From a bacterium (GTDB taxonomy: Bacteria; Electryoneota; AABM5-125-24; Hatepunaeales; Hatepunaeaceae): 64,000 nucleotides of DNA. The notes beneath the pieces are model-generated. The model was not told the origin of the DNA. It worked only from the letters and a program-made list of their open reading frames with translations, and did no database searches. The stretch is taken from the NCBI GenBank assembly GCA_025774605.1, contig JALGVR010000001.1, positions 2,634 through 66,633 on the forward strand, given 5' to 3'. Made by a program: the position numbers and the translations under genes. Positions 54,520 to 55,986 of the stretch are shown here, piece after piece. Position 1 is the stretch's first letter; each line of letters begins with the position of its first letter.

Positions 54520-55986
54520 CTACCCGAACACCGATTTCCCCGTCACCGCGTTGGCTGCTTCGGTGAAGGCTTCAGACAGGGATGGATGCGGCTGTGATGT
54601 GCCGGCGAGAACCCCCGCGGTCATGTCCAGCTTGCGTCCGATCACGATCTGACCGATCAGCTCCGGCGCGCCGGTTCCGACGACGTGTGCCCCCAGAATC
54701 CTCTCGGTGTCGCGGTTGACGATCAGCTTGACCAGTCCGTCCTTCATACCCCGCGCCACGGCGCGATCGTTGGCGCTGAAATAACTCTTGCCGATCTTGA
54801 AATCATACCCGCTTTCGGCTGCGGTCTCCTCCGATATCCCGACCGTGGCTACTTCGGGATGACAGTAAATGCAGGAGGGCATGTTTTCGTAACTTATACC
54901 TGAGGATTCCTGCCCCGCCATGGTCTCGGCCGCGCAGGCGCCCTCCAGTAAAGCCGCCTGTGCCAATAACGGAGGTCCGGCGCAGTCCCCGACGGCGTAA
55001 ATTCCCGGGATGCTTGTCCGCATGTGATCGTCGACCGCGATGAACCCCTCGTCCAACTCCATGCCCAGCGATTCAAGTCCAAGATGTTTTACGCTTGCCA
55101 CCCGCCCGATGTTGACGATGCAGATATCGGCGTAAAGATCGGCAGGTCCTTCGCCGGTGTCGATGAAGTAATGCCATACATCCCGGCTGCGGTCTATTCC
55201 GGTCAGCCTGCTCGACGTCTGGATGCGAATCCCCCTCTGCTTGAATATCCGGCTGATCGTCCGGATGATGTCCTCATCCATCGCCTCAAGTATACCGCTC
55301 CGGCTTTCGACGATGGTAACCTGGCTGTCCATGGCCTGGAAGACGTAAGCGAACTCGAGGCTGATGGCGTTGCCACCGATGATCAGCACCCGGCGGGGTA
55401 TCCGGTCGAGATCGATCACTTCCCGGGGGCTGATGATCTTTCCCCTCTCGAATTCCACGCCCGGATAAGGTTTGGGTTCCGCCCCCGTGGCGATTACGAC
55501 GTTTTCCGCCTCGACCGTCAGATCCTCTCCGTCCGCGGTGGCTATCTTTACATGGTTGGCGTCCTTCAGTGAGGCTGATCCCTTGATCACCGCCGCCTTC
55601 CACTTGGCGAGGGTTATCTCCCCGCCCTTGGAGATCAGATTGGAAACGGTTCTGGCGCGCTTGACGACCGCCGGCCAGTCGGGCTTCGGTTCCGCCTGCT
55701 TCAAGCCGAACGCCGATGCCTGACGGGAGATGTCGATGACATGCGCCGATTCGATCAGCGACATCGTCGGCAGACGACTCCGGCGCAATGATATGCCGGC
55801 AAGGTCCTTGCGGGCGATCAGAACGGTTTTCATCCCCAGTTGAGCCGACCTGACCGCCGCCGCGAAACCGCCGGGACCACCGCCGATCACGGCCACCTCG
55901 CAGGAATCCGTATGTTTGAGTTTTATGATCTCGATCTCCCGTTCAGTCTTTTTATAATTATAGTGCATCCGCACCTGTTCAGGCAA
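54520..55986 (-). CDS. Dihydrolipoyl dehydrogenase-like flavoprotein (pyridine nucleotide-disulfide oxidoreductase class I). Both redox-active cysteines are substituted.
   Basis: FAD motif VIGGGPGG. The C-terminal HPSLSE His-Glu dyad is conserved. Where [12 protein letters not shown] is expected, the sequence reads GISLRRSRLPTM (Cys to Ser and Cys to Arg, by substitution not frameshift). Confidence 0.65.
   Translation of the reverse strand: MPEQVRMHYNYKKTEREIEIIKLKHTDSCEVAVIGGGPGGFAAAVRSAQLGMKTVLIARKDLAGISLRRSRLPTMSLIESAHVIDISRQASAFGLKQAEPKPDWPAVVKRARTVSNLISKGGEITLAKWKAAVIKGSASLKDANHVKIATADGEDLTVEAENVVIATGAEPKPYPGVEFERGKIISPREVIDLDRIPRRVLIIGGNAISLEFAYVFQAMDSQVTIVESRSGILEAMDEDIIRTISRIFKQRGIRIQTSSRLTGIDRSRDVWHYFIDTGEGPADLYADICIVNIGRVASVKHLGLESLGMELDEGFIAVDDHMRTSIPGIYAVGDCAGPPLLAQAALLEGACAAETMAGQESSGISYENMPSCIYCHPEVATVGISEETAAESGYDFKIGKSYFSANDRAVARGMKDGLVKLIVNRDTERILGAHVVGTGAPELIGQIVIGRKLDMTAGVLAGTSQPHPSLSEAFTEAANAVTGKSVFG

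Follow-up and report, generated by a model that had tools for sequence, protein, structure and literature searches.

A cysteine-less derivative of dihydrolipoyl dehydrogenase, probably maintained by selection, at the lpd-lipA locus of an uncultured FCB-group bacterium

An open reading frame (ORF) on the minus strand of a 64,000-nucleotide stretch of contig JALGVR010000001.1 (assembly GCA_025774605.1, positions 2,634 to 66,633; the whole stretch is here called the window) encodes a homolog of dihydrolipoyl dehydrogenase (E3, gene lpd) in which both redox-active cysteines have been replaced. The host is an uncultured bacterium of the Fibrobacteres-Chlorobi-Bacteroidetes (FCB) group that carries dsr genes. 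It is very probable that the protein is a derivative of E3 that has been kept by selection and lacks the capacity for dithiol-disulfide exchange. Because both redox cysteines are lost, established E3 chemistry predicts a protein unable to reoxidise dihydrolipoyl groups in the classical way, and the claim of the original prediction that classical dithiol-disulfide exchange is impossible for it follows directly from that loss. As judged from its sequence, then, the gene cannot supply the E3 activity assumed by annotation. The ORF and the motifs within it that matter for the argument are as follows.

54520..55986, minus strand: lpd-like ORF derived from E3, 488 amino acids when read from TTG (ORF call and family matches)
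55867..55884, minus strand: flavin adenine dinucleotide (FAD) binding GxGxxG, reading GGGPGG (G35-G40), intact; columns invariant across all alignments
55744..55803, minus strand: former redox-disulfide helix, L62-A81 (LAGISLRRSRLPTMSLIESA), from alignments and the codon comparison with the relative P0002
55360..55377, minus strand: nicotinamide adenine dinucleotide (NAD(H)) fingerprint, degenerate, GGNAIS in place of GxGxxG (G206N, G209S), from alignments and codon comparison
54985..54990, minus strand: "GD" motif for FAD, G333-D334 (YAVGD), kept, from alignments
54571..54588, minus strand: acid-base pair His467...Glu472 (HPSLSE within PHPSLSE), kept, from alignments to E3s

Matches to the family are extensive. 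Pfam finds Pyr_redox_2 (2.9e-54), Pyr_redox and Pyr_redox_dim (PF02852, 3.4e-33), and the best NCBIfam match is TIGR01350, dihydrolipoyl dehydrogenase, at full length and with 424.8 bits, where the curated cutoff is 408.8. By HMMER every one of its closest PDB relatives is a true E3, among them 6uzi (3.4e-86) and human DLD (about 1e-81). An AlphaFold2 (AF2) model with a mean predicted local distance difference test score (pLDDT) of 93.2 and a predicted template modelling (TM) score of 0.91 was matched by Foldseek to 6uzi with TM scores of 0.93/0.97 and a root-mean-square deviation of 1.3 Å, and in this model the E3 fold with its dimerisation domain is kept. The only internal stretch of low confidence in the model is residues 61-70 (pLDDT 63), exactly the site of the former disulfide.

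The start codon of the ORF is uncertain, with GTG at 55974 and ATG at 55968 as further candidates. The real start may lie downstream of the TTG, because residues 1-25 are not conserved in P0002, have low confidence in the AF2 model and are overlapped by a sigma-70-like match (TTGCCT-18-TATAAT at 55957-55986, minus strand) that falls inside the annotated N-terminus. The sigma-70 promoter scan as a whole returned 3 sites where 1.9 were expected, which is background level.

The loss of the cysteines is seen in gap-free alignments. The segment LAGISLRRSRLPTM of the window protein aligns without gaps to the canonical redox-disulfide segment of solved E3 structures in HMMER, the query residues that run from kdlagis to liesah being set opposite the E3 redox helix, and SLRRSR stands where E3 has CLNVGC. 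The first cysteine has become Ser66 (TCA, 55789-55791) and the second Arg71 (CGT, 55774-55776), as had been claimed for this ORF, and the motif is real although it lies at 55744-55803, slightly downstream of the 55790-55830 first given for it. Nearby, the lysine beside flavin N5, the role of which has been described (PMC1924876), is replaced by Met75 (55762-55764). The FAD beta2 glutamate has become Ala58, and the conserved LAH reads LAQ. The four remaining cysteines, C335, C351, C372 and C375, cannot be regarded as replacements for the redox pair because canonical relatives have them too. The C-terminal His-Glu dyad was correctly predicted to be kept, as H467 and E472 in PHPSLSE, whereas the prediction that the FAD and NAD folds are conserved holds for the fold itself (AF2, Foldseek) and for the FAD GxGxxG but not for the NAD(H) fingerprint, which reads GGNAIS. 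Ribose-binding Glu227 is retained despite this degenerate motif. The fingerprint is intact in P0002 (GAGPIG) and reads GANGRG and GANERG in two further cysteine-less relatives, P0125 and P0272. The second NAD glycine, present at this column in 99.6% of canonical E3s, is asparagine (AAC/AAT) in the window protein and in both of these last two, and glycine (GGT) in P0002; this shared change has either arisen in parallel, via two nucleotide substitutions, or has been reverted in P0002.

Of the 64 columns with a conservation of 90% or more among 252 canonical E3s, 18 are altered in the window protein, against a canonical mean of 1.8, a maximum of 8, and 1-2 in the nearest canonical relatives. Compared with canonical E3 (TIGR01350; 6uzi, human DLD) the protein thus has the same fold, domain order, FAD GxGxxG, GD motif, His-Glu pair and dimerisation domain, and it lies above the TIGR01350 cutoff; it differs at both redox cysteines, the N5 lysine, the FAD beta2 glutamate and the NAD GxGxxG, and its score of 425 bits falls short of the 550-564 bits of canonical orthologs from syntenic loci. 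Lacking both the redox disulfide and the NAD fingerprint, the protein should not, as far as its residues tell, be classed as a dihydrolipoyl dehydrogenase despite passing TIGR01350.

Such proteins are rare. Among 369 retrieved homologs of 440-500 amino acids, CxxxxC.P is present in 365 of the 365 that remain when two cysteine-less pairs are set aside. The first pair, here clade A, is the window protein and P0002, the product of an independent contig of a second metagenome (JGI 3300031565), which shares 64% identity with the window protein and reads LAGLSLRRGRLPTM (SLRRGRLPTM) at the helix. The second, clade B, is P0125 and P0272, of which P0125 surfaced in an exhaustive phmmer search and P0272 in a follow-up search. 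That exhaustive search, of 1.84 billion cluster representatives, found only P0002 near the window protein (677 bits), the next match having 347 bits, and so four cysteine-less sequences in two sub-clades are the total among billions searched. A scan of genome contigs with the window protein gave only distant canonical lpd genes (27-33% identity), and a scan of metagenome contigs gave the P0002 contig only. An ENA copy of that contig, L004, is 100% identical in nucleotide sequence to the P0002 contig, L001, and was rejected as a third clade A sequence since it is not independent. Had homologs placed the cysteine-less form in a known subfamily with an assigned function, the original prediction would have lost its point; what the homologs give is a small conserved cysteine-less clade without name or assigned function, and the literature searched yielded no described cysteine-less E3 subfamily.

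The source is a metagenome-assembled contig, and it might be asked whether sequencing, assembly or binning made the substitutions. No positive sign of an artefact was found, an independent contig of another sample has the identical substitutions amid many synonymous differences, and the E3 motif is not restored in any alternative frame, so that the chance of an artefact seems negligible. As predicted, the loss has come about by substitution and not by frameshift: the other two frames at the motif hold stops or unrelated sequence. A hidden frameshift suggested by CAGVVC in the +1 frame was judged a coincidence, a stop following it and P0002 having no counterpart.

Selection on the gene was addressed by comparing the window with P0002. 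The rates of nonsynonymous (dN) and synonymous (dS) substitution were 0.294 and 1.62, with omega (dN/dS) 0.18 by NG86, and the p-distances at codon positions 1, 2 and 3 were 0.30, 0.19 and 0.55; YN00 and several NG86 estimates of dS were undefined through saturation, and NG86 was used where defined together with these raw codon-position distances. This test, which had been proposed with the original prediction, points to purifying selection. Identity over L62-A81 is 85%, against 63% protein-wide, and 17 of the 20 residues are identical, 13 of those 17 being encoded by different synonymous codons (window/P0002: Arg71 CGT/AGG, Arg68 CGC/CGT, Ser66 TCA/TCG). Residues 315-345 around the GD motif are 83-90% identical and the interface domain 73%. 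Because the new SLRRxRLPTM motif has been conserved across synonymous codon changes, it is itself under selection. For the clade B pair omega is 0.12-0.17, as against 0.07-0.08 for lipA of the same two genomes, and all four cysteine-less ORFs (461-488 codons) are intact with dS of 1.1-1.6 within pairs.

These values bear on the suggestion in the original prediction that the gene is a decaying pseudogene, in which case lpd would have lost its function while its reading frame has so far stayed uninterrupted. Several catalytic motifs are gone, protein evolution is accelerated, and motifs have been eroded further by lineage (the NAD motif in the window, the histidine and the GD in clade B), all of which a pseudogene would explain. 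However the four ORFs are intact in spite of their synonymous divergence, omega is 0.12-0.18 with substitutions falling mostly at third codon positions, the G+C content at third positions (0.74) is normal and similar to that of neighbouring genes, and the new motif has held across synonymous changes, which together make a pseudogene highly improbable. Such comparisons indicate that the gene is not a pseudogene and that the protein has a function. The other possibility raised with it, a flavoprotein that has diverged to a putative new function, agrees with the data and is the better reading.

The position of the gene is also that of an lpd. The adjoining features are listed here.

53580..54461, minus strand: lipA (lipoyl synthase), intact, Pfam Radical_SAM and LIAS_N, 58 nucleotides downstream of the lpd-like ORF
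51618..53549, minus strand: TPR protein, Pfam TPR families, third gene of lpd-lipA-TPR; a TPR gene also follows lipA in L014 and L002
51585..51606, minus strand: terminator-like hairpin just past the TPR gene, a possible operon end (consensus match only)
56109..57530, plus strand: sigma-54 response regulator, divergent from the lpd-like gene, used as a synteny anchor

That lipA adjoins the lpd-like ORF, on the same strand, had been noted before and is so; no terminator-like site was found between the two. None of the three diagnostic motifs (CX4CX5C, CX3CX2C and RSSY) is missing from the window LipA, and lipoyl cofactors are therefore presumably still made. Beyond the regulator flgB, flgC, fliE, fliF, fliG and fliH follow on the plus strand and serve as an anchor for positional orthology. 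Contigs L002/L003 have the matching arrangement, fliJ to flgB and the sigma-54 response regulator facing lpd, lipA and the start of a TPR gene, with a canonical lpd product, P0003, that is 48% identical to the window protein and keeps GGVCLNWGCIPTK (CLNWGC). On L013 the lpd encoding P0004, also with CLNWGC, is followed by lipA. Since syntenic contigs hold a canonical lpd in the same slot, the window gene is the positional ortholog of canonical lpd in a conserved lpd-lipA-TPR operon. The lpd-lipA linkage is broken in the genome of P0002, in which the downstream gene (L004 1758-2285, the same as L001 1758-1880) is not lipA but an ORF with a P-loop (LIGPNASGKSN), read by eye as ATPase-like; lipA was for this reason rejected as a dN/dS control for the window and P0002.

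Clade B occupies the same kind of locus, in which the response regulator faces the lpd-like gene, lipA and the TPR gene, with flagellar genes beyond. Its lpd-like genes have these positions.

L011 1860-3245: clade B lpd-like gene
L012 1025-2410: clade B lpd-like gene
L014 10001-11386: clade B lpd-like gene

Here the end of the lpd-like gene and the start of lipA overlap by 8 nucleotides. The two clade B proteins are 70% identical to each other and 37-38% identical to the window protein, and their former disulfide motifs, GGSYLLYGAVPIRS in P0125 and GGSHFFGGAIPLRS in P0272, have no redox cysteines: tyrosine or histidine stands at the first and alanine at the second, and the motif drifts (SYLLYGAV against SHFFGGAI). 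They are eroded further in that the catalytic histidine is serine, the GD is GN and, as in the window, the second NAD glycine is asparagine, and they score 383 and 372 bits against TIGR01350, below the cutoff. Clade B and the window gene thus have in common the synteny, the loss of both cysteines, the asparagine at the NAD motif, purifying selection and their grouping by neighbour-joining (NJ); clade B differs in its replacement residues, the serine for histidine, the GN, the unconserved motif and the lower family score. On L014 the sigma-54 response regulator beside the clade B gene (9125-9652, minus strand) is a deletion derivative of 175 residues; tblastn aligns it only to positions 3-56 and 353-473 of the regulator in the window, so that it has no AAA+ domain for interaction with sigma-54.

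In the NJ tree clades A and B group together with 99% bootstrap support and are sister to the canonical syntenic P0003-P0006 with 98%, the whole group having 99%; long-branch attraction could inflate the support for A with B, mean distances to outgroups being 1.16 for A and 1.3 for B against 0.80 for the canonical sister clade. Rare residue states are shared 6 times between A and B, 5 times between A and the canonical syntenic pair P0003 and P0004 (C3 and C4), and 3 times between B and C3/C4. A four-point comparison made by hand from lipA identities puts the window together with clade B and apart from C3 and C4. Because the bootstrap and this comparison both pair A with B, these sequences are more parsimoniously, if tentatively, explained by one loss of the disulfide in a common ancestor. 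When lipA serves as the internal clock, the ratio dN(lpd)/dN(lipA) comes to 0.81 in the canonical C3-C4 pair, 1.9 for the window and C3, where one branch is affected, and 2.7-2.8 for cysteine-less pairs. The identities of lipA and lpd are correspondingly 61%/64% for C3-C4, 70%/48% for the window and C3, and 88%/70% within clade B. Relative to lipA the cysteine-less protein appears to have evolved about three times faster than expected, under purifying selection. Overall the comparisons describe a rare, lineage-specific and unnamed cysteine-less E3 clade at the ancestral lpd-lipA locus.

What the protein does is a separate problem. For clade A we favour, tentatively and as a reading that is quite possible, an FAD-binding protein that carries out thiol-independent flavin chemistry at a remodelled arginine-rich site. 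In an ancestor of the lineage E3 would have lost its redox-active disulfide in place, after which the protein would have evolved faster with purifying selection maintained. The clade A protein, predicted from its motifs still to bind FAD, would use the flavin directly and without a thiol relay, in a si-face pocket that has been remodelled, with Arg68, Arg69 and Arg71 along its walls, and to which the partner subunit may supply the His-Glu pair. The substrate or electron acceptor would be a non-lipoamide partner, probably anionic or a protein. In favour of such a flavin chemistry are the retained fold, dimerisation domain, FAD GxGxxG, GD motif and His-Glu pair and the conserved SLRRxRLPTM.

Several points weigh against it. 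FAD binding is a prediction from motifs, and the changes of the beta2 glutamate to alanine and of the N5 lysine to methionine do not help it. With the NAD(H) fingerprint degenerate, a classical diaphorase driven by NAD(P)H looks doubtful in this genome. The omega values are approximate, dS being near saturation, and clade A consists of two independent sequences only. Clade B, eroded yet selected, suggests that a non-catalytic role can sustain such a protein, and that role might be common to both clades.

A non-catalytic pseudoenzyme, in which fold and dimer of E3 have been retained for binding, scaffolding or regulation and FAD, if bound, is structural only, is accordingly a close rival, though on balance somewhat less likely; lipoyl or octanoyl carrier proteins, LipA or a true E3 would be candidate partners. 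The window protein seems to combine what defines a pseudoenzyme, loss of the residues of the ancestral reaction and purifying selection. It has lost the NAD GxGxxG, the FAD beta2 glutamate and the N5 lysine, with 18 of 64 conserved columns changed, and its degenerate NAD fingerprint suggests no obvious electron donor. Clade B, which shares the locus and is sister to clade A at 99% by NJ, persists at omega 0.12-0.17 without the cysteine pair, the histidine, the GD aspartate and the second NAD glycine, and its 8-nucleotide overlap with lipA indicates tight co-expression. In contrast the motif, the GD region and the His-Glu pair of clade A are conserved above the protein average at saturated synonymous divergence, as would be expected of a working active site, and the P0002 gene is no longer followed by lipA.

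An E3 active site is assembled from two subunits, and a residual contribution to E3 function could be imagined in which the window protein pairs as a heterodimer with a canonical E3 from another locus and lends it His-Glu, or uses other thiols. Clade A keeps His467, Glu472 and a well-conserved interface domain (73%), and with lipA intact lipoyl proteins that require reoxidation presumably exist. This is nonetheless very unlikely: the candidate thiols C335, C351, C372 and C375 occur in canonical relatives also and are not substitutes, the NAD site is degenerate, and clade B has lost the histidine as well. Nor does the window hold a second lpd; the search for an intact copy elsewhere, proposed with the original prediction, gave none by tblastn within these 64 kb, the other matches being a CoADR-like protein and generic FAD folds.

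Thiol-independent flavin chemistry, the reading favoured for clade A, can be set against known systems in which the disulfide is incomplete, absent or not used. M. tuberculosis LpdA (Rv3303c; 1xdi; NF005883) belongs to the E3 family of flavoproteins without being a lipoamide dehydrogenase; its disulfide centre is incomplete, one cysteine being kept, and it lacks His-Glu. The pattern in the window protein is the opposite, both cysteines being gone and His-Glu kept. Its origin is independent, and it scores 154 bits against 1xdi compared with 294 bits against a true E3. In the literature LpdA carries the annotation NAD(P)H quinone reductase (PMC9213004). Membership of an LpdA type of NAD(P)H-quinone dehydrogenase was rejected for the window protein, since NF005883 gives 275.6 bits, below its cutoff of 479. 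SthA/UdhA (NF003585; 9n4y) belongs to the disulfide-reductase family and carries out direct flavin-nicotinamide chemistry without dithiol exchange, and E. coli E3 engineered from cysteine to serine reportedly retains diaphorase or transhydrogenase activity. In the transhydrogenases the catalytic histidine is replaced by tyrosine (PMC1924876). The window protein was rejected as an SthA as well (NF003585 at 292 bits, cutoff 465; histidine kept where transhydrogenases have tyrosine), and SthA requires intact dinucleotide sites whereas the NAD fingerprint here is degenerate. The LpdA and SthA families are both separate lineages that stand further off.

Ferredoxin/flavodoxin reductases (FNRs) of the thioredoxin reductase (TrxR)-like kind lack CXXC, and their flavin hands electrons straight to a partner protein (PMC8564101, PMC10294844). 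By analogy they may illustrate the same route, a scaffold that lost its cysteines, and offer a precedent for thiol-independent chemistry; they are of another subfamily (the TrxR fold of low relative molecular mass, not the class of E3 and glutathione reductase) with an intact NADPH site, and the window protein is no closer to them than to E3. LipT is an FAD oxidoreductase co-encoded with the lipS1/lipS2 lipoyl synthases and proposed as electron donor for sulfur insertion (PMC10332631). It belongs to an unrelated family and is a conceptual parallel only. The more specific proposal that clade A is an unrecognised E3-derived flavoenzyme, in which an arginine-lined si-face pocket served by His-Glu would replace the thiol relay, with electrons passed to LipA in the manner of LipT or an anionic sulfur or carboxylate substrate as candidates, is for now unlikely.

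As to the organism, proteins of the window are on deposit (HHE46xxx) under the label "Bacteroidetes bacterium", and its DsrB shares a 90%-identity cluster with a DsrB of Ca. Hatepunaea meridiana, a member of Ca. Electryoneota. The phylum Ca. Electryoneota (FCB group) has been described as capable of dissimilatory sulfate reduction (PMC9324843), and by Pfam the window holds at 13206-42460 (plus strand) a complete dissimilatory sulfur gene island (sat/apr/qmo/dsr). Its order is H+-PPase, Sat, a small ORF (AprB?), an AprA-like protein, QmoA-like and QmoB-like proteins (FlpD domain), DsrA and DsrB, then a small ORF (DsrD?), a DsrN-like CobB, a DsrL-like protein (Fer4_20 and Pyr_redox_2) and DsrM/K/O/P-like proteins, and finally a CoADR-like protein with a rhodanese domain, HemA and genes for sirohaem synthesis. 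A single-chain pyruvate:ferredoxin oxidoreductase (PFOR) of 1191 amino acids is encoded at 45044-48619 (minus strand), and pyruvate oxidation via PFOR needs no complex dependent on lipoate or E3. No GcvH was found within the window by tblastn with an approximate query sequence. A protein of 1232 amino acids (8673-12371, plus strand) with CarboxypepD_reg domains and a Por_Secre_tail, the sorting signal of the type IX secretion system, is consistent with an FCB-group origin. At 927-3718 (minus strand) lies a polyamine operon for S-adenosylmethionine decarboxylase, pyruvoyl-dependent arginine decarboxylase, spermidine synthase and a protein of the agmatinase/arginase family. Between flgC and fliE an ORF of 64 amino acids is present in three lineages (window 58752-58946, plus strand; L002 6838-7032, minus strand; L014 7939-8133, minus strand); the copies are of equal length and 32-46% identical and share (R)R..LE.QL..AI and a C-terminal HLGxxIDI, and the L002 and L014 copies have no Pfam match on record.

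For annotation these proteins are a trap. The window protein passes the equivalog cutoff of TIGR01350, and JGI labels a clade B relative "dihydrolipoamide dehydrogenase", so automated reconstructions would credit these FCB-group sulfur bacteria with E3 and hence with glycine-cleavage or 2-oxoacid dehydrogenase systems. For enzyme evolution the locus offers a natural experiment in which an essential redox enzyme lost its catalytic disulfide at the ancestral position, after which one branch conserved a new arginine-rich site and the other eroded further, both under purifying selection. If a new activity were found, the flavoprotein disulfide reductases would gain a thiol-independent member in their E3 branch.

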